Assembly (NCBI GenBank): GCA_008012315.1
Contig: SSEL01000033.1
Span: 5,716 to 69,715 of the forward strand
DNA length: 64,000 nucleotides
Direction: 5' to 3'
Source: Rhodospirillaceae bacterium
Lineage (GTDB): Bacteria; Pseudomonadota; Alphaproteobacteria; Dongiales; Dongiaceae
Position numbers and translations under genes: made by a program. The notes under the pieces are model-generated. The model was given only the letters and a program-made list of their open reading frames with translations. It was not told the DNA's origin and ran no database searches. Positions 48,700 through 64,000 of the stretch are shown piece after piece. Position 1 is the first letter of the stretch. Each line of letters starts with the position of its first letter.

Positions 48700-49626
48700 T
48701 CAGGCCGCCATCAAGGCAGCGACATGGGCGGCGGCGCTTTCGGCCAGCGCCTTCAGGTCATAGCCGCCTTCCAGGGTCGAAACCACCCGCCCCTGGCAGC
48801 ATCGATCGGCCAAAGCCATTAATTCTTGGGTCGCCCAGGCAAAATCCTCGGCCTCGAAGGCCAGATTCGCCAGCGGATCCGCCCGGTGGGCATCGAATCC
48901 GGCGGAAATGAGCAACAGATCGGGCCGGAAAGCCTCGACCGTCGGCAGGACGATGTCGCTCATCGCCGCCCGGAACTCCGCCGATCCGGCACCCGGCGGC
49001 AAAGGCGCATTGCAGATATTGCCGCAGCCGGTTTCCTGCACCGCCCCGGTGCCGGGATAAAGCGGCATCTGATGGGTCGAGGCAAAAAACAGGCTGGGAT
49101 CGGCTTCGAACATGTGCTGGGTGCCATTACCGTGATGGACGTCGAAATCCACCACCGCCACCCGCCCCCAGCCATGGGTGGCCCGGGCATGGGCGGCCGC
49201 GATGGCGATATTGTTGAACAGACAAAAACCCATGGCCCGAGTCGCTTCGGCGTGATGGCCAGGCGGCCGAATGGCGCAAAACGCATTCCTGACCTGGCCG
49301 GCTGCTACCGCATCGACCGCCGCCATGGTCGCCCCGGCGGCCCGCAAGGCAGCCTGCCCCGATCCCGGCGACACGATCGTATCGCCATCCAGCATCGCAT
49401 AATCCTCATCGGGGATCGCGCCCAAGACGGCCTCGACATAATCCGCGCCATGGACCCGGGCGATCGCAGCGCGCGATGCCAGCGGCGCCTCGATACGCTG
49501 CAGCGCAGCAAATTCCGGCCGATCAAGCGCCGCGAGAACGACCCGCAAACGGTCGATGCGTTCCGGATGGCCGGGACCGGTATCGTGTTCCAGACAGGCC
49601 GGATGCGTCACCAGGGCAGTCGTCAT
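48700..49626 (-). CDS. Histone deacetylase family amidohydrolase
   Basis: HPERIDRL, RPPGHHA, GFCLFNN, DFDVHHGNGTQ, SAGFDAH, LEGGY. Confidence 0.93.
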   Translation of the reverse strand: MTTALVTHPACLEHDTGPGHPERIDRLRVVLAALDRPEFAALQRIEAPLASRAAIARVHGADYVEAVLGAIPDEDYAMLDGDTIVSPGSGQAALRAAGATMAAVDAVAAGQVRNAFCAIRPPGHHAEATRAMGFCLFNNIAIAAAHARATHGWGRVAVVDFDVHHGNGTQHMFEADPSLFFASTHQMPLYPGTGAVQETGCGNICNAPLPPGAGSAEFRAAMSDIVLPTVEAFRPDLLLISAGFDAHRADPLANLAFEAEDFAWATQELMALADRCCQGRVVSTLEGGYDLKALAESAAAHVAALMAA

Positions 49627-50000
49627 GCGGACCTCCGTTGCGTAAGGCCGGCAAGGCAGAGCGATAGCCAGCCCAGCATCATCAAGACCCCGCCGAGGGG
49701 CGTAATGGCGCCCAGCCAGCGTTGCTGCAGGAAGGCTAGTAGATAGAGGCTGCCGGCGAAGATCAATGCACCCCAGAAAAAACCATGGGCCGCAAACGTG
49801 ATCCAGCGTGAGGACAGACGCTCGCCTAAGGCTACCAGGCCAACCAGGGCCGCGGCATGCCAGAGCTGATAGCTCGCCCCGGTCTTGACCCAATCGACGA
49901 TGCGGGGATCGCCAAGCTGGCTCAGGTCATGGGCGGCGAAAGCGCCGAAACCAACGCCCATCAAGCCGGTGATACCGGCGGCGATCAACCAATGACGCAT
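49623..50000 (-). CDS. DUF423 (YgdD/TMEM256) membrane protein
   Basis: GFGAFAAH, TGASYQLWHA, FAGSLY, LGAITPLGG. Confidence 0.9.
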   Translation of the reverse strand: MRHWLIAAGITGLMGVGFGAFAAHDLSQLGDPRIVDWVKTGASYQLWHAAALVGLVALGERLSSRWITFAAHGFFWGALIFAGSLYLLAFLQQRWLGAITPLGGVLMMLGWLSLCLAGLTQRRSA

Positions 50001-54249: not shown

Positions 54250-54338
54250 TATAGCCGGGCAGATGACGCAAAACCGGCTTTGCATCCTGCACGTGTCCAG
54301 CGCATCATGCGAGACCCGTGACTTCGAGGATGCGCGCA

Positions 54339-56113
54339 ATGCCCGATTATCAGGCTCCGCTGGACGATATCCGCTTCACCTTACGCCATATCGCCGGGCT
54401 GGAAGCGATCGCGCAATTGCCGGGCTATCAGGAAGCGAGCCTCGATACCTGCGACGCAATCCTGAGCGAGGCGGCGAAATTCGCTGCTGACGTCCTGGTG
54501 CCACTCAATCGCAGCGGCGATGCCGAAGGCGCGAAACTGGTGGATGGCAAGGTCCGTGTACCAACGGGCCAGGCGGAAGCCTATCGCCAATTCGCCGAAG
54601 CCGGCTGGAATTCCGTCGCCTTCGATCCGGATTTCGGCGGCCAGGGCATGCCCTGGGCCTTGACCACGGCGCTACAGGAAATCTGGAACGCCGCGAACAT
54701 GGCTTCTCGCTGTGTCCCCTGCTGACCCAGGGCGCCGTGGAAGCGCTACAGATCCACGGCAGCGAGGCGCAGAAAAAGACCTATCTCGCGCCCCTCATCG
54801 CCGGTCGCTGGACCGGCACGATGAACTTGACCGAACCGCAGGCCGGATCGGACCTTGGCGCACTGAAAACCCGTGCCGAGCCCAAGGGCGACCATCACCT
54901 CCTCACCGGCCAGAAGATCTTCATCACCTATGGCGACCACGAAATGGCCGAGAATATCGTGCATTTCGTCCTGGCGCGCTTGCCCGATGCGCCGAACGGA
55001 TCGAAAGGCATTTCGCTCTTCATCGTGCCGAAGTTCCTGGTCAATGCCGATGGCAGCCTGGGCGCGCGCAACGATGTGAAGGCCGTCGCGCTGGAACACA
55101 AGCTTGGCATTCATGCCAGCCCGACCTGCGTCATGGCCTATGGCGATGAAGGTGGCGCCGTCGGTTATCTGGTCGGCGAGCCCAATCGCGGCCTCGAATA
55201 TATGTTCACCATGATGAACAATGCTCGGCTTGCCGTCGGCGTGCAGGGGCTGGCCATCGCGGAGCGGGCCCTGCAGGCTGCGCGGGCCTATGCCGGCCAG
55301 CGGGTGCAAGGCACGACACCCGGCAACGATCCCGCCGCCCGTCTGCCGATCCACCATCATCCGGATATCCGCCGCAGCCTGATGGCGATGCGCGCCTGGA
55401 GCGAAGCGACACGCTGCCTGATTTATTTTGCCGCCGGTACACTGGACCGCGCGAAGCGGCATCCGGATTCCACTGAGCGTGCGGATTATCAGGCCCTGGT
55501 CGATCTGCTGATTCCCATCGCCAAGGCCTGGTCGACCGATCGCGGGGTTACGGCTGCCTCGCTGGGTGTGCAGATTCATGGCGGGGCCGGCTTCATCGAA
55601 GAAACCGGTGTCGCGCAATTCTATCGCGATGCCCGGATCGCGCCGATCTATGAAGGCACCAATGGCATTCAGGCGATCGACCTGCTCGGCCGCAAATTGC
55701 TGCGCGACGGCGGCCGCACGGCGCATGGCCTGATCGCCGCCATGACCGTTACGCTCAAGGCATTGAAAGCCAATAGCGACCCCGAGGTCAAAATACTTGC
55801 CAATCATCTCGAACCGACCCTGACCGCGCTCGCCAATGCGACGGAATATCTTTTGAAACTGGGTGAGGCGGAGATTGCCCGCGCCCTGGCCGGTGCCTCG
55901 CCCTACCTCGACTTGTTCGGCCTGGTCCTGGGTGGCTGGCTCCTGGCGAAGTCGACCCTCGCGGCCCGCGACAGAGGCGATCCGATCCGGGATGAGAAAC
56001 TGGCGGTGACCCAGTTCTATATGGCGAATCACTTGCCGCAGGCCTTGGCTCTGGAAATTGCCATCGTCAGCGGCGCCGACAGCGTCCTGAAACTGCCGCC
56101 GGAGCGCATCTGA
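54339..56113 (+). pseudogene. Acyl-CoA dehydrogenase split by an apparent 1-bp deletion at about 54704 (true pseudogene or sequencing error)
   Basis: The N-terminal half (MPDYQAPLDDIRF...EIWNAANMA) and C-terminal half (GTMNLTEPQAGSDLG, KIFITYG, MFTMMNNARL, IYEGTNGIQA) are in different frames. Adding one T to GCTTCTCG restores NMAFSLCPLLTQGAVEAL. Confidence 0.85.
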
Positions 56114-56232: not shown

Positions 56233-57822
56233 ATGCCCGATCATCCGCGCAAAATCCTGCTGATTTCCGCCGACCAATGGCGCGGCGAATGCCTCTCCGC
56301 CGTCGGGCATCCAGTCGTCAAGACACCGCATCTCGATGCACTTGCGGCGGAGAGCGTCCTGTTCAAGCATCACTACACCACTTGCGCCCCGTGCGGGCCG
56401 GCGCGTACCAGCTTGCTGACCGGCATGTATCTGATGAATCATCGCTCCGGCCGCAACGGCACACCGCTGGACGCACGCTATACCAATCTCGCTTATGAAG
56501 CCCGCAAGGCCGGCTATGATCCGACCTTGTTCGGCTATACCGATACCAGCCAGGATCCGCGCGGCAAGGCGCCGAACGATCCGATGCTCAAGACCTATGA
56601 AGGCGTCATGCCGGGCTTTACCGTCGGCTTGCCCCTTCCCGACCACATGATGCCGTGGGTCGCCGATCTGAAGGCTAAAGGCTACAAGTTCAACGACCGT
56701 TCGGATGTCTATAAACCGCGCCAGGATGTGTCGCTGCCCGCCGATCGCGGCCATAGCTTCCTGCCGACGATTTTCAAAGCTGAAGACAGTGAAACCGCCT
56801 TCATGGCCGACACCGTCTTGAAGTGGCTCTCGGTGCGCCAGGACCAGGATTGGTTCGTTCATTGCGTCTTCCTGCGGCCGCATCCGCCGGTCATCGCGCC
56901 GGAACCCTATAACGCGTTATACGATCCGAAGGACGTTGCCATGCCTCGGCGCCAGGCGACAGCGGAAAAGGAAGCGGCGCAGCATCCGCATGTGAAATTG
57001 TGGATTGATCATTTCCGGGAACATTCGGGTTACGACGAGCACAATCCGAATAATCTCGTGACGATAGATGAGCTCAATCTGCGCCAGATGCGCGCCACCT
57101 ATTACGCCATGATCAGCCAGGTCGACGATCAGATCGGCCGGATCATCGCGCATCTGAAAGCGACCGGCGAATATGAGAACACACTGATCGTCTTTACCTG
57201 CGATCACGCGGAGATGGGCGGCGATCACTATACCTGGGGCAAGGAAACTTATTTCGACCAGAGCTTCCATATTCCACTGATCATCCGCGACCCGCGCCGC
57301 ACCGCCGATAGCGGGCGTGGCAGCCAAGTCGATCAATTCACTGAGTCCGTCGATATCGTGCCGACGATCCTCGATTGGCTGGGCCGGGACATTCCGGCGC
57401 AATGCGACGGCCATTCCTTGCTGCCTTTCCTCGAGGGCAACACGCCGGCCGACTGGCGCGCCGAGGTGCATTACGAAGTGGATTTTCGCTATACGCCGAA
57501 TCTACCCGGCCTTGACGCTGAAACCCGGCTGGGCCTGAAACCGGACGATTGCTACCTGACCGTCATCCGCGACCGGCATTACAAATATGTGCATTTCGCG
57601 ACCTTGCCGCCGCTGCTCTTCGATCTGACCCGCGATCCCGCCGAAATGAACAATTTGGCGGATCAGGCGGAACAGGCACCTATCCTGCTGCGTTATGCTC
57701 AAAAGATGTTGAGCTGGCGCATGCGCCATGCCGACCGGACCTTGGCCAATTTGCATCTCAGCAAAGAAGGCGTATTCGACGGCTATCAGCGGCGCCCAGT
57801 TTCTCAAGGCAGAATTTCTTAA
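56233..57822 (+). CDS. Sulfatase/alkaline phosphatase superfamily, phosphonate monoester hydrolase-like
   Basis: LISADQWRGECL, CGPARTSLLTG (CxPxR formylglycine motif), YLMNHR, TCDHAEMGGDH, LFDLTRDP. Confidence 0.88.
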   Translation: MPDHPRKILLISADQWRGECLSAVGHPVVKTPHLDALAAESVLFKHHYTTCAPCGPARTSLLTGMYLMNHRSGRNGTPLDARYTNLAYEARKAGYDPTLFGYTDTSQDPRGKAPNDPMLKTYEGVMPGFTVGLPLPDHMMPWVADLKAKGYKFNDRSDVYKPRQDVSLPADRGHSFLPTIFKAEDSETAFMADTVLKWLSVRQDQDWFVHCVFLRPHPPVIAPEPYNALYDPKDVAMPRRQATAEKEAAQHPHVKLWIDHFREHSGYDEHNPNNLVTIDELNLRQMRATYYAMISQVDDQIGRIIAHLKATGEYENTLIVFTCDHAEMGGDHYTWGKETYFDQSFHIPLIIRDPRRTADSGRGSQVDQFTESVDIVPTILDWLGRDIPAQCDGHSLLPFLEGNTPADWRAEVHYEVDFRYTPNLPGLDAETRLGLKPDDCYLTVIRDRHYKYVHFATLPPLLFDLTRDPAEMNNLADQAEQAPILLRYAQKMLSWRMRHADRTLANLHLSKEGVFDGYQRRPVSQGRIS

Positions 57823-61127
<3,305 letters not shown>

Positions 61128-61156
61128 TCGCGATCCAGAATTCGGGGAGATAGACT

Positions 61157-61462
61157 GTGTTCAAGATTGACAGCAGCCGCGCCGATTTGGCGGCGGCCTA
61201 TAAAAAGAATCCGCTGGATACCTATCCCAGTCCGGCCTTGCAAAAAGTGTTGCAACGTTTGCGTTGGGGCAATGCCCGTGGCCGCACCATCGTCGTCTGC
61301 ACCGTGCCCGAGCGGGAATGGCGCCTTGGCAAAATGGGTACGCGGCGCGGCATGCCGGTCGAGATCGACGGCCAAGCTTATAACCGCTACGAAGACGCCC
61401 TTTGGGCCTGCTTTCGCGCCCGCTGGCGCGAAGTGTCCGGCGAAGACTGTCCTGTCGCATAG
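61157..61462 (+). CDS. N,N-dimethylformamidase-like small (alpha) subunit
   Basis: NP....PSPALQKVLQRLR...GR...EDALWACFRARW resembles the recalled DmfA1 pattern NP...PSP.LQRV...R..GR...EEA..AVF..R; lies directly upstream of a DMFase beta gene. Confidence 0.65.
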   Translation: MFKIDSSRADLAAAYKKNPLDTYPSPALQKVLQRLRWGNARGRTIVVCTVPEREWRLGKMGTRRGMPVEIDGQAYNRYEDALWACFRARWREVSGEDCPVA

Positions 61463-61510
61463 CCGCACCTTCGCTTTCGCCCAAATCATATTCCGTTTCT
61501 AGGCCAAAAA

Positions 61511-63718
61511 ATGAGCAAGCTACCCAAGCGTCTTCTCGGTTATACCGATAAGGTCAGCGTCGCCCCCGGCGACAAAATCGATTTCAAAATCAGCTCTCCC
61601 TTGACCGGCAAATACGACGTCCGGATTGTGCGCCTGATCTGCGGCGACGATTCCGACGGCGGGCCGGGTCTCAAAGTCGATTCCGTCAAGACACCGATCG
61701 ACGGCAGCTATCCCGCGCGCTGGCAGCCGATCCACCATGGCTCTTATGCCGCGATCGATAACGGCGCCGCTTTCGCCGCAACGGCGATCACGCTCGACGC
61801 CATGATCTGGCCGACCCTGCCCGAGGATGGACGCGATCAGGCTCTGCTCGGCAATTTCGATGCGGCGACGCAAAGCGGCTACGCGCTCTATATCGATGGG
61901 TCGGGTCATCTGAGCTTCCGGGTCGGCGCTGCAGCATCCGTGCGGCTGTCGACGCCCCTGCTGTCGCGCCATTGGCATCACGTCGCCGTCAGCTTCGATA
62001 CCGCTTCCGGCAAGGTCATCATGCATCAGCACCGTTTGTTGGACTATCCCAGGGTGCAACGCTCCGACACGATCGACGCGACGATCCCCGGGGCAAAAAC
62101 CGCCGGCAGCAGCCGTTTCCTGATTGCGGCCTGGTCTGACAAGGAGAATGCCGCCGCCCATTACAACGGCAAGATCGACAGTCCGCGCGTGATCGGCGCG
62201 GCGCTCGATGCGGCGGGCCTTGCGGCACTTCGTCCGCATCAGGCCGGCAAGGCACCGGTGATCGCCGATTGGGATTTCTCCCGCGAAATGGCGGGAATCG
62301 AGATTCGCGACATCTCCGGCAAGGGCCATGATGGCCGGCTGGTCAATCTGCCGGCCAGGGCCATGAAGGGCTGGAACTGGGATGCGACGGAAATGAACTG
62401 GCGGCACAAGCCGGAGCATTACGGCGCCATTCATTTCCATGATGACGATCTCTACGATTGCGGCTGGGAGACCGATTTCACGCTGACGGTGCCGGCCGGC
62501 CTCAAGAGCGGCATCTATTGCGCCGAGCTTCACCAGAAGGGTCCGGATGGCGAGATCGACGACATGATCCCCTTCTATGTCCGGCCGCCGCGCGGCACCG
62601 CCACCGCACCGGTCGCGCTGCTGATCCCGACCGCCAGCTATCTCGCTTATTCCAACCACCAGATGGCCTCGAGTTGGAGCTTCGACGAATTGTCGAGCGG
62701 CAAGTTCGTCACCCTTTCGGCCGGTGATCGCTATCTGGAGGAAAACCACAGCTTCGGCCTGTCGACCTATGACAGCCATAATGACGGCAGCGGCGTCTGC
62801 TACTCCTCGCGCCTGCGGCCGGTACTGAACATGCGTCCCCGGGCCGAGCTATGGCAGTTCAACGCCGATACCCATATCACCGATTGGCTGGAAGCCCGCG
62901 GCATCGCTTACGACGTCATCACCGATGACGATATGGAAGCCGAAGGCCTGGACCTGCTGAAGAACTATCGCTGCGTCGTGACCGGCACCCATCCGGAATA
63001 TTACACGACGAAGATGATGCAGACGGTCCGCGACTTCACCAATGAAGGCGGGCGGCTGATCTATCTCGGCGCCAACGGTTTCTACTGGCGCGTCGCCTAT
63101 CACGAGGCCCTGCCGGGTGTCCTGGAGCACCGCCGGGCCGAAGACGGTATGCGCGGCTGGATCTCCGAAGACGGCGAATACTATATGAACTTCAGCGGCG
63201 AGCTGGGCGGCCTGTGGCGCCGCAACGGCCAGCCGCCGCAGGGCCTGGTCGGGACCGGTTTCGCCGCCCAGGGCTTCGATATCTCAAGCTGGTATGACCG
63301 CACCCCGGACAGCTTCAATCCGCGCGCCGCCTTCATTTTTGAAGGTGTCGGCAAGGACGAGAAGATCGGCGATTTCGGCCTGATCGGCGGCGGTGCCGCC
63401 GGTTGGGAGATCGACCGTGCCGACGAGCTCTTGGGCACGCCGCCGCATACGCTGATCGTCGCCGTCGCCTCGGAATTCCCCTCCAGCTATCACTGGGTCA
63501 AGGAAGAGTTCAATCATACGCATTCGGCGATCGACGGCGAGAATTGCCCGATGGTCCGCTGCGACATGACTTTCTTCGAAACGCCCAAGGGCGGCGCGGT
63601 CTTCTCGACCAGCTCGATCTCCTGGGCCGGCAGCTTGTTCCACAACAATTATGAGAACAATGTCAGCCGCATCACCGAGAACGTGATCCGCCGGTTCATC
63701 GATCCGACGCCGCTATAA
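61511..63718 (+). CDS. N,N-dimethylformamidase-like large (beta) subunit
   Basis: N-terminal LamG/ConA-like region (WHHVAVSFD, YNGKIDSP); catalytic-domain motifs PTASYLAYSN, GLSTYDSHNDGSG, GTHPEYY, YLGANGFYW, AAGWEIDR, GGAVFS. Confidence 0.88.
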   Translation: MSKLPKRLLGYTDKVSVAPGDKIDFKISSPLTGKYDVRIVRLICGDDSDGGPGLKVDSVKTPIDGSYPARWQPIHHGSYAAIDNGAAFAATAITLDAMIWPTLPEDGRDQALLGNFDAATQSGYALYIDGSGHLSFRVGAAASVRLSTPLLSRHWHHVAVSFDTASGKVIMHQHRLLDYPRVQRSDTIDATIPGAKTAGSSRFLIAAWSDKENAAAHYNGKIDSPRVIGAALDAAGLAALRPHQAGKAPVIADWDFSREMAGIEIRDISGKGHDGRLVNLPARAMKGWNWDATEMNWRHKPEHYGAIHFHDDDLYDCGWETDFTLTVPAGLKSGIYCAELHQKGPDGEIDDMIPFYVRPPRGTATAPVALLIPTASYLAYSNHQMASSWSFDELSSGKFVTLSAGDRYLEENHSFGLSTYDSHNDGSGVCYSSRLRPVLNMRPRAELWQFNADTHITDWLEARGIAYDVITDDDMEAEGLDLLKNYRCVVTGTHPEYYTTKMMQTVRDFTNEGGRLIYLGANGFYWRVAYHEALPGVLEHRRAEDGMRGWISEDGEYYMNFSGELGGLWRRNGQPPQGLVGTGFAAQGFDISSWYDRTPDSFNPRAAFIFEGVGKDEKIGDFGLIGGGAAGWEIDRADELLGTPPHTLIVAVASEFPSSYHWVKEEFNHTHSAIDGENCPMVRCDMTFFETPKGGAVFSTSSISWAGSLFHNNYENNVSRITENVIRRFIDPTPL

Positions 63719-63738: not shown

Positions 63739-63781
63739 AAAAAAGCGCAGGCATCGGTGAGATGCCTGCGCCTTTTCTTTT
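63739..63781. terminator. Bidirectional intrinsic terminator between the DMFase beta gene and the convergent hisD-like gene
   Basis: AAAAAA-GCGCAGGCATC-GGTGA-GATGCCTGCGC-CTTTTCTTTT. Confidence 0.9.
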
Positions 63782-63789
63782 CGTCCGGC

Positions 63790-64000
63790 TCAGCCGTTCT
63801 TGCGCATCAGCCGCTGGCGGATCTCCGAGACGGCATTGGCATGGGCATCGAAGCCCTCGTAATCGGCCAGCGCCTTGGCCGGCCCGGCCATGGCCGGATA
63901 GCCCTTCGGCGTGACATAAGCGAGCGACGTCCGCTTCAGATAATCGAAGACCGAGAGCGGCGATGACGTGCGGGCAGCACCTGACGTCGGCAGGATGGCA
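63790..64000 (-). CDS. hisD: Histidinol dehydrogenase family protein, 3' end only
   Basis: Not in the ORF track. Translation ...AILPTSGAARTSSPLSVFDYLKRTS...LADYEGFDAHANAV matches the HisD C-terminal LPT.G.AR..S.LSV.DF.K...EG..AHA.AV pattern. Confidence 0.78.
   Translation of the reverse strand, partial: AILPTSGAARTSSPLSVFDYLKRTSLAYVTPKGYPAMAGPAKALADYEGFDAHANAVSEIRQRLMRKNG

Follow-up and report, generated by a model that had tools for sequence, protein, structure and literature searches.

A pgi-linked gene pair of the N,N-dimethylformamidase family in Dongiaceae, probably acting on a natural substrate other than N,N-dimethylformamide

Members of the N,N-dimethylformamidase (DMFase) family, which number in the thousands, have an unusual iron site and two folds that became known in 2020; only three activities have been described, two of them on man-made compounds. 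In the DMFase of Paracoccus, built of a small (DmfA1, alpha) and a large (DmfA2, beta) subunit, H519, N547 and E657 proved essential by mutagenesis, and the preference for small amides is attributed to Phe693, a residue of the partner subunit that narrows the pocket (PMC7686228). The characterised dmf loci, on pAMI2 and pLVM1, are plasmid cassettes in the order LuxR regulator-dmfA1-dmfA2, bracketed on pAMI2 by insertion sequence (IS) elements. A survey recovered the large-subunit gene from 4.5% of complete genomes, with about 90% of the carriers holding it only on the chromosome (10.1101/2021.03.18.435917). Another member, the acetamiprid amidase AceAB of Pigmentiphaga sp. D-2, is reported to be close to the DMFase of P. 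aminophilus and to have no activity on N,N-dimethylformamide (DMF) (PMC11573777). Our literature search found no further characterised clade. Here we analyse an alpha-beta gene pair of this family that follows pgi, the glucose-6-phosphate isomerase gene, in a 64,000-nucleotide stretch of contig SSEL01000033.1 from a Rhodospirillaceae bacterium (the whole stretch is hereafter the window).

We conclude, with a probability of about 0.68, that alpha and beta form a DMFase-family Fe(III) amidohydrolase whose substrate is not DMF but a natural N-substituted compound. DMF itself is an unlikely substrate. The pair is an uncharacterised member of a known family in which chromosomal genes are common, and its added local interest lies in a conserved linkage to pgi and a promoter-like element embedded in the pgi coding sequence. 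An earlier note on this DNA, made from the sequence, had likewise proposed an amidohydrolase for a natural N-formyl or N-acyl compound; the existence of the gene is not new, since public records of relatives already label beta as N,N-dimethylformamidase.

A two-subunit member of the DMFase family

The assignment of beta to the family rests on a full-length alignment and a diagnostic domain. In a PDB search, residues 8-734 aligned to residues 6-758 of the Paracoccus large subunit (6LVB_A, E 2.7e-164), the second-best solved relative being the N-acetyl-(R)-beta-phenylalanine acylase 8HUY (E 5e-140), and a Pfam scan returned DMFA2_C (PF20254; E 2e-92, 310.8 bits against a gathering cut-off of 27) together with the LamG-like PF13385. 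NCBIfam has a model for neither subunit. All four motifs that the earlier note had named for the iron site are present in beta (YLAYSN at residue 377, GLSTYD at 416, HPEY at 494 and GWEID at 631). The iron ligands of 6LVB, Y399, Y440 and E521, align with beta Y380, Y420 and E496, and the essential H519, N547 and E657 with H494, N522 and E633. These six residues are invariant, apart from one gap at Y380, in an alignment of 82 beta sequences that takes in two genetically characterised DMFases.

The 101-aa open reading frame (ORF) is a true DMF_alpha subunit, and its homology to DmfA1 is established by four independent lines of evidence. The DMF_alpha family PF26354 is annotated on the identical ORF of a public contig and on 17/17 close homologues; our local Pfam scan returned nothing for alpha even at E 10, the copy scanned apparently being one without PF26354. 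A single-sequence PDB search matched 6LVB_B marginally (E 0.033); a profile built from 64 alpha sequences, used in its place, gave 6LVB_B as the top match (E 1.9e-7), the next match having an E-value of 0.035. For an AlphaFold (AF2) model with a predicted local distance difference test score (pLDDT) of 72, the sole confident Foldseek matches were 6LVV_B, 6LVD_B and 6LVB_B (probability 0.96-0.99, TM score about 0.5). Finally, natural fusions of alpha with beta occur in 14 of 80 reference loci; in 63 the two genes are adjacent but separate, and in three no alpha was detected. The residues P19, R36, F86 and R89 are the only ones invariant across the family, and DmfA1 has all four. The pattern NP..PSP.LQ.V..R that had been noted for alpha fits only approximately, with the spacing corrected to NP-x4-PSP-x-LQ-x-V-x2-R in the window. 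Alpha is without the first ~36 residues of DmfA1, the alignment beginning at DmfA1 residue ~37; in the DMFase structure this segment is a helix wedged between two large subunits (PMC7686228).

As to its place within the family, beta is 41% identical to DmfA2 of P. aminophilus, 40% to DmfA2 of Methylobacterium DM1 (itself nearly identical to 6LVB) and 37% to 8HUY. A distance tree groups the pgi-linked sequences in a single clade beside a sister clade of fused proteins, and places the true DMFases on a separate long branch and 8HUY, whose catalytic residues are the same as those of beta, outside the window's clade. We compared the pocket with that of 6LVB through sequence-aligned residues. Phe693 of DMFase corresponds to His669 of beta, within an EEFNHTHSA loop whose His-Thr-His element is common to the fused sister clade, and among the 82 sequences only the two true DMFases have Phe at this position. 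Tyr656, beside the catalytic Glu of DMFase, corresponds to Trp632. On these sequence grounds (40-41% identity, a separate branch, Phe693 replaced by His, the missing alpha helix, and a locus free of LuxR and IS genes), the pair is best described as a separate branch and not as a DMFase orthologue. The clade itself had not been characterised before, and nothing that the earlier note had listed as refuting its reading (loss of the Tyr/Tyr/Glu ligands, a small ORF unrelated to DmfA1, high DMF activity in a characterised clade) was encountered.

Inheritance, genomic context and transcription

The exact window sequence is also present on a wastewater-metagenome contig. The closest named genome is that of Dongia soli D78 (beta 94% identical), followed by metagenome-assembled genomes (MAGs) of Dongiaceae (79-81%) and by Dongia mobilis (64%). 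Alpha-beta immediately follows pgi in 31/31 loci of reference species that share 57% identity or more with the window in beta, with pgi-alpha gaps of 14-90 nt; below 57% identity only the alpha-beta pairing is retained. This family-wide linkage goes beyond the earlier note, as do the Dongia-like organism, the promoter-like element described below, the fused sister clade and the altered specificity loop. The genes pgm, pgi, alpha and beta, with pgm as the first, behave as a block, usually flanked by hisD and by a PehA-like sulfatase-family gene, the latter lying beside it in 25/31 pgi-linked reference loci at 64-91% identity. Between the D. mobilis group (L004/L012) and the group of D. soli and the window, the block is inverted as a unit relative to these flanks. 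In a third group (D. deserti and others), pgm has been lost from the block.

Both ORFs are real genes under purifying selection. The ratio of nonsynonymous to synonymous divergence (dN/dS) lies at 0.04-0.12 in alpha and at 0.06-0.18 in beta, values that match those of pgm and pgi, and synonymous divergence (dS) is saturated across the Dongiaceae clade, whose members come from soil, freshwater and groundwater. Since alpha and beta identities follow those of pgm, pgi, hisD and the sulfatase gene, GC content is flat and the flanking genes are ordinary chromosomal ones, we regard the locus as chromosomal and vertically inherited in Dongiaceae. Horizontal acquisition was considered and rejected on the same tracking of divergence and the same flat GC content. 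We found no dmfR-type LuxR activator and no mobile or plasmid context in the window or its downstream contig, and no plasmid in PLSDB with a homologue above 43% identity. The chromosomal setting emphasised in the earlier note, unlike that of the plasmid cassettes, was therefore borne out; its supposed rarity was not, about 90% of carrier genomes being chromosome-only in the survey cited above.

A promoter-like element, TCGACA-N18-TATGAT, is present in the 3' coding end of pgi. It was the sole promoter-like match in a scan of the region and lies 47 nt upstream of the alpha start. The exact motif occurs at the same place in 30/31 pgi-linked species loci and in 0/56 other loci; in the 31st, the -35 hexamer is kept and the -10 hexamer is TATAGT, which changes the encoded Asp to Ser and still matches TATAAT at 5/6 positions. 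The hexamers encode Ser-Thr and Tyr-Asp with four synonymous positions, each of them 100% conserved, which holds for none of the other degenerate third positions among the last 64 pgi codons. Moreover, only 6% of the Thr codons of these genomes are ACA, and the hexamer codons have a joint probability of about 0.007 per genome. Together these figures imply selection on the DNA itself. Most simply, the element would be a sigma-70-type promoter that drives alpha-beta alongside read-through from pgi.

Transcripts of the locus were seen in the wastewater metatranscriptome X9, which belongs to the study that also yielded the DNA contig. Five near-identical X9 contigs lie inside beta, and one, covering 60967-61196, runs from pgi across its stop and the spacer into the first 40 nt of alpha. 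No X9 contig extends beyond 63581. In the sibling metatranscriptomes X25 and X26, the only matches were to a conserved pgi stretch from other organisms. A scan of the + strand found no terminator-like site between pgi and beta. Downstream of beta, a stem-loop at 63745-63771, with 8 GC pairs in its 11-bp stem and a T-run after it (dG -24 kcal/mol, z -5.4 against shuffles), is in keeping with the strong terminator noted earlier. Beta and hisD converge on it, and an A-run precedes it on the 5' side; it may be bidirectional and serve hisD as well. The features of the locus are listed in Table 1.

Table 1. Features of the gene pair and its surroundings, in window coordinates.
Feature	Coordinates	Strand	Details
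Alpha (small) subunit gene, DMF_alpha family	61157..61462	+	101 aa, GTG start, PF26354
Beta (large, catalytic) subunit gene	61511..63718	+	735 aa; LamG-like + DMFA2_C domains
pgi (glucose-6-phosphate isomerase)	59484..61127	+	NF001211, 823 bits
pgm (phosphoglucomutase)	57847..59487	+	NF005737, 917 bits
PehA-like sulfatase / phosphonate-monoester hydrolase family gene	56233..57822	+	PF00884; NF045661 595 bits
hisD (histidinol dehydrogenase), 3' end, convergent, continues past the window	63790..64000	-	TIGR00069
Intrinsic terminator	63745..63781	+	hairpin then CTTTTCTTTT
Promoter-like element TCGACA-N18-TATGAT	61080..61109	+	within 3' coding end of pgi

The tandem of 101-aa and 735-aa ORFs, 29 nt after pgi, was recovered at the coordinates first given. 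Alpha is preceded by a GGGGAG ribosome-binding site, and its N-terminus cannot be extended past an in-frame stop at 61151, 6 nt 5' of the start. The 29-nt gap runs from the pgi stop at 61127; alpha and beta are spaced by 48 nt, and pgm and pgi overlap by 4 nt. On the identical metagenome contig, hisD is complete (L001, 6092-7429) and scores 447 bits with TIGR00069 against a cut-off of 244. The sulfatase-family gene is closest to the PehA phosphonate-monoester/sulfate ester hydrolase, but its NF045661 score falls short of the cut-off of 900. It is a conserved Dongiaceae flank of the block and may or may not be tied functionally to alpha-beta. Between 45.9 kb and the gene pair, and for ~10 kb downstream on the identical metagenome contig, the scanned ORFs are ordinary chromosomal genes and, as the earlier note had stated for the immediate vicinity, include no IS, integrase or regulator.

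Several side observations concern the surroundings and the wider family. An acyl-CoA dehydrogenase gene at 54318-56113 (+) is split over two frames, a 135-aa N-terminal ORF (54318-54725) and the remainder (54737-56113), and its D. soli equivalent is a single intact ORF of ~600 aa at the same place (L010, 768-2615); the split reflects either a frameshift pseudogene or an assembly error. A histone-deacetylase-family gene at 48700-49893 (-), 11 kb upstream, belongs to a family that includes acetylpolyamine amidohydrolases. By family it would be a further amide cleaver for N-acetylated amines, any linkage to alpha-beta being hypothetical. In six loci an amidase-signature gene lies close downstream of beta, and five of these loci are fused. 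MAGs labelled Terriglobia, Terriglobales, Binatia and Cybelea (L007, L009, L028 and L035) carry a Dongiaceae-type beta at 59-80% identity, and L007, L009 and L035 also have the Dongiaceae gene order (alpha-beta plus pgi, hisD or the sulfatase gene); these are probably mis-binned contigs and not true occurrences in those phyla.

Proposed function and alternatives

We propose that, in a Dongia-like alphaproteobacterium, alpha and beta together make up a cytoplasmic amidohydrolase with a mononuclear Fe(III) centre. The iron would, by homology, be held by Y380, Y420 and E496, and an iron-bound water, activated with E633 as the base, would attack the amide carbonyl. N522, with H494, would stabilise the intermediate, and the products would be a carboxylate and an amine. 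Alpha would stabilise beta and help form the substrate entrance, possibly within an alpha2beta2 assembly. The pair belongs to a separate Dongiaceae clade with a different, more polar specificity loop, and most likely acts on a small amine or amino compound of natural origin that is N-substituted (N-acyl or N-formyl). Its expression would need no dedicated regulator, combining read-through of the pgm-pgi operon with the putative embedded promoter and ending at the strong terminator shared with hisD.

The substrate class is our best guess, a reasonable if weak one, and draws on the gene neighbourhoods of relatives. The closest homologue outside Dongiaceae, 65% identical, is found in Mesorhizobium sp. 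MSK_1335 (L092, 7149-11205), where a class-III aminotransferase gene lies directly upstream of alpha-beta, an IclR regulator is nearby and pgi is absent. This suggests that the amine product is transaminated in that organism. On plasmid pBVIE01 of Burkholderia vietnamiensis G4, alpha-beta lies among genes for an amino-acid ATP-binding cassette (ABC) transporter, a GntR regulator, a D-amino-acid dehydrogenase and an alanine racemase, which hints at an N-acyl-D-amino-acid substrate in this lineage. Elsewhere, the neighbours include Pot-type ABC transporters (13 loci), glutamine-synthetase-like genes (7) and amidase genes (6), in what is faintly a recurrent amine-handling theme.

Several considerations weigh against our proposal. 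The neighbourhoods outside Dongiaceae are heterogeneous, with 148 immediate neighbours spread over 133 Pfam families, and for this reason the guess at a substrate class is weak. An amine-catabolic role also leaves the conserved pgm/pgi linkage unexplained; the linkage may be neutral, or it may reflect a link to hexose phosphates. For every member of the clade, the biochemistry, including the iron and the alpha2beta2 arrangement, is predicted from sequence, and the absence of the wedge helix from alpha means that assembly may differ from that of DMFase. The promoter is proposed from conservation and not from a mapped transcription start. Lastly, the metatranscriptome evidence, which consists of short assembled contigs from one sample with possible DNA carry-over, includes no contig across the alpha-beta junction, and is supportive, not decisive.

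Two alternatives would assign the pair a function already described in the family. That it is a genuine DMFase, with a role in hydrolysing DMF (or N-methylformamide) to formate and dimethylamine, is very unlikely in our estimate, even though the family and the catalytic residues are the same, the public records of relatives carry the DMFase name and the exact contig was recovered from a wastewater metagenome, a setting in which solvents may be present. Beta shares only 40-41% identity with characterised DmfA2 and branches separately; the constriction residue F693 has become His; and the locus has no DmfR-type LuxR regulator, IS or plasmid context. Vertical inheritance with saturated dS also fits poorly with a synthetic substrate first made in 1893 (10.1101/2019.12.17.879908), and our literature search found no link between Dongia and DMF degradation. 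Because AceAB is closer to DMFase than the window pair and is nevertheless inactive on DMF (PMC11573777), the function cannot be transferred at 40% identity. An acylase of N-acyl amino acids or beta-amino acids, like the Burkholderia N-acetyl-(R)-beta-phenylalanine acylase 8HUY, is unlikely too. It would agree with the rank of 8HUY among solved relatives, with the shared catalytic residues and with the amino-acid transporter, D-amino-acid dehydrogenase and alanine racemase genes around the Burkholderia plasmid homologue. However, 8HUY is 37% identical and falls outside the window's clade, its specificity loop is different, and it lists only large-subunit chains, whereas alpha of the window is conserved and under selection; nor are amino-acid catabolic genes linked to the pair in the Dongiaceae loci examined.

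The remaining alternatives take the genomic position of the pair as their starting point. The enzyme could be coupled to hexose-phosphate metabolism, de-acylating an amide-bearing sugar, sugar phosphate or related compound and handing its carbon on to Pgm and Pgi; in one version the sulfatase-family neighbour may be part of the same route. The adjacency of pgi, alpha and beta in 31/31 Dongiaceae species loci despite protein divergence (57-94%), the inversion of pgm-pgi-alpha-beta as one unit and the RNA contig showing read-through all speak for such a coupling. Nevertheless, we think it improbable: pgm and pgi match canonical housekeeping equivalogs, the conserved promoter-like element directly ahead of alpha points to control of its own, sugar genes never adjoin the homologues outside Dongiaceae (the 65%-identical pair of Mesorhizobium among them), and a stable gene order within one family can be neutral. 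A more specific form, in which the enzyme frees a sugar, a sugar phosphate or a regulator of the node from a natural amide and is tied to central hexose-phosphate metabolism, seems to us decidedly unlikely. If true, such a role would explain both the family-wide linkage and the promoter in pgi codons, and would be the first natural function for 2-Tyr-1-carboxylate iron amidases. Far less probable than any of these is a catalytically dead or non-enzymatic relic carried beside essential genes. A substrate that can only be guessed at and the want of a dedicated regulator would suit a relic; yet the catalytic residues are all invariant, both genes are transcribed and under strong purifying selection, and alpha and beta are paired or fused in 77/80 loci.

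A DMFase-family amidohydrolase with a natural, non-DMF substrate thus remains our preferred explanation, and it has several implications. The label "N,N-dimethylformamidase", and surveys that equate such genes with DMF-degradation potential, over-predict. The family is large, with more than 5,000 clusters at E of at most 1e-10 for beta and 294 clusters at 50% identity for the narrow alpha profile, and a vertically inherited, expressed clade in the cultured D. soli D78 and D. mobilis CGMCC 1.7660 offers a practical route to a natural substrate. The element in pgi would in addition be a clean, small example of a regulatory sequence constraining synonymous codons over family-level divergence.

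Comparison with known systems

The best-described relatives are DmfA1/DmfA2 of Paracoccus sp. DMF (6LVB), P. aminophilus (pAMI2) and Methylobacterium sp. DM1. The window pair shares with them the order of alpha before beta, the three-domain architecture of beta with identical iron and catalytic residues, and, in alpha, the core fold with the four family-invariant residues. In contrast to DmfA1, which has 132-141 aa and an N-terminal wedge helix, alpha has 101 aa and no such helix, and its homology is seen only by profile search. Beta differs from DmfA2 in having His669 for Phe693 and Trp632 for Tyr656, and the genes lie in a vertically inherited chromosomal block behind pgi, unlike the cassettes.

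The acylase 8HUY/8I59/8I5A resembles beta in its large-subunit fold and catalytic residues, and demonstrates that the family acts on natural-type N-acyl amino compounds. It is further from beta than DMFase is, and its specificity loop is different. Only large-subunit chains are listed for these entries, whereas the window has a conserved alpha; PDB searches with the alpha sequence and profile match no such chain. AceAB, which we compared by its literature description only, is like the window pair a two-subunit alpha/beta enzyme of the DMFase family and extends the substrate range of the family beyond DMF; unlike what we propose for the window pair, its substrate is a synthetic insecticide (PMC11573777).

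Closest of all are the fused DMF_alpha-LamG-DMFA2_C proteins of the sister clade (836-860 aa; 54-57% identity), which come from other Alphaproteobacteria, Entotheonellaceae and others. The neighbourhoods of the three members examined are heterogeneous (amidase, acyl-CoA dehydrogenase, 2-oxoglutarate (2OG) oxygenase and others). These proteins share with the window pair the THTHS-type loop and an alpha domain of ~100 aa, but each is a single polypeptide and has no linkage to pgi, whereas in Dongiaceae the two subunits are encoded separately, directly behind that gene.

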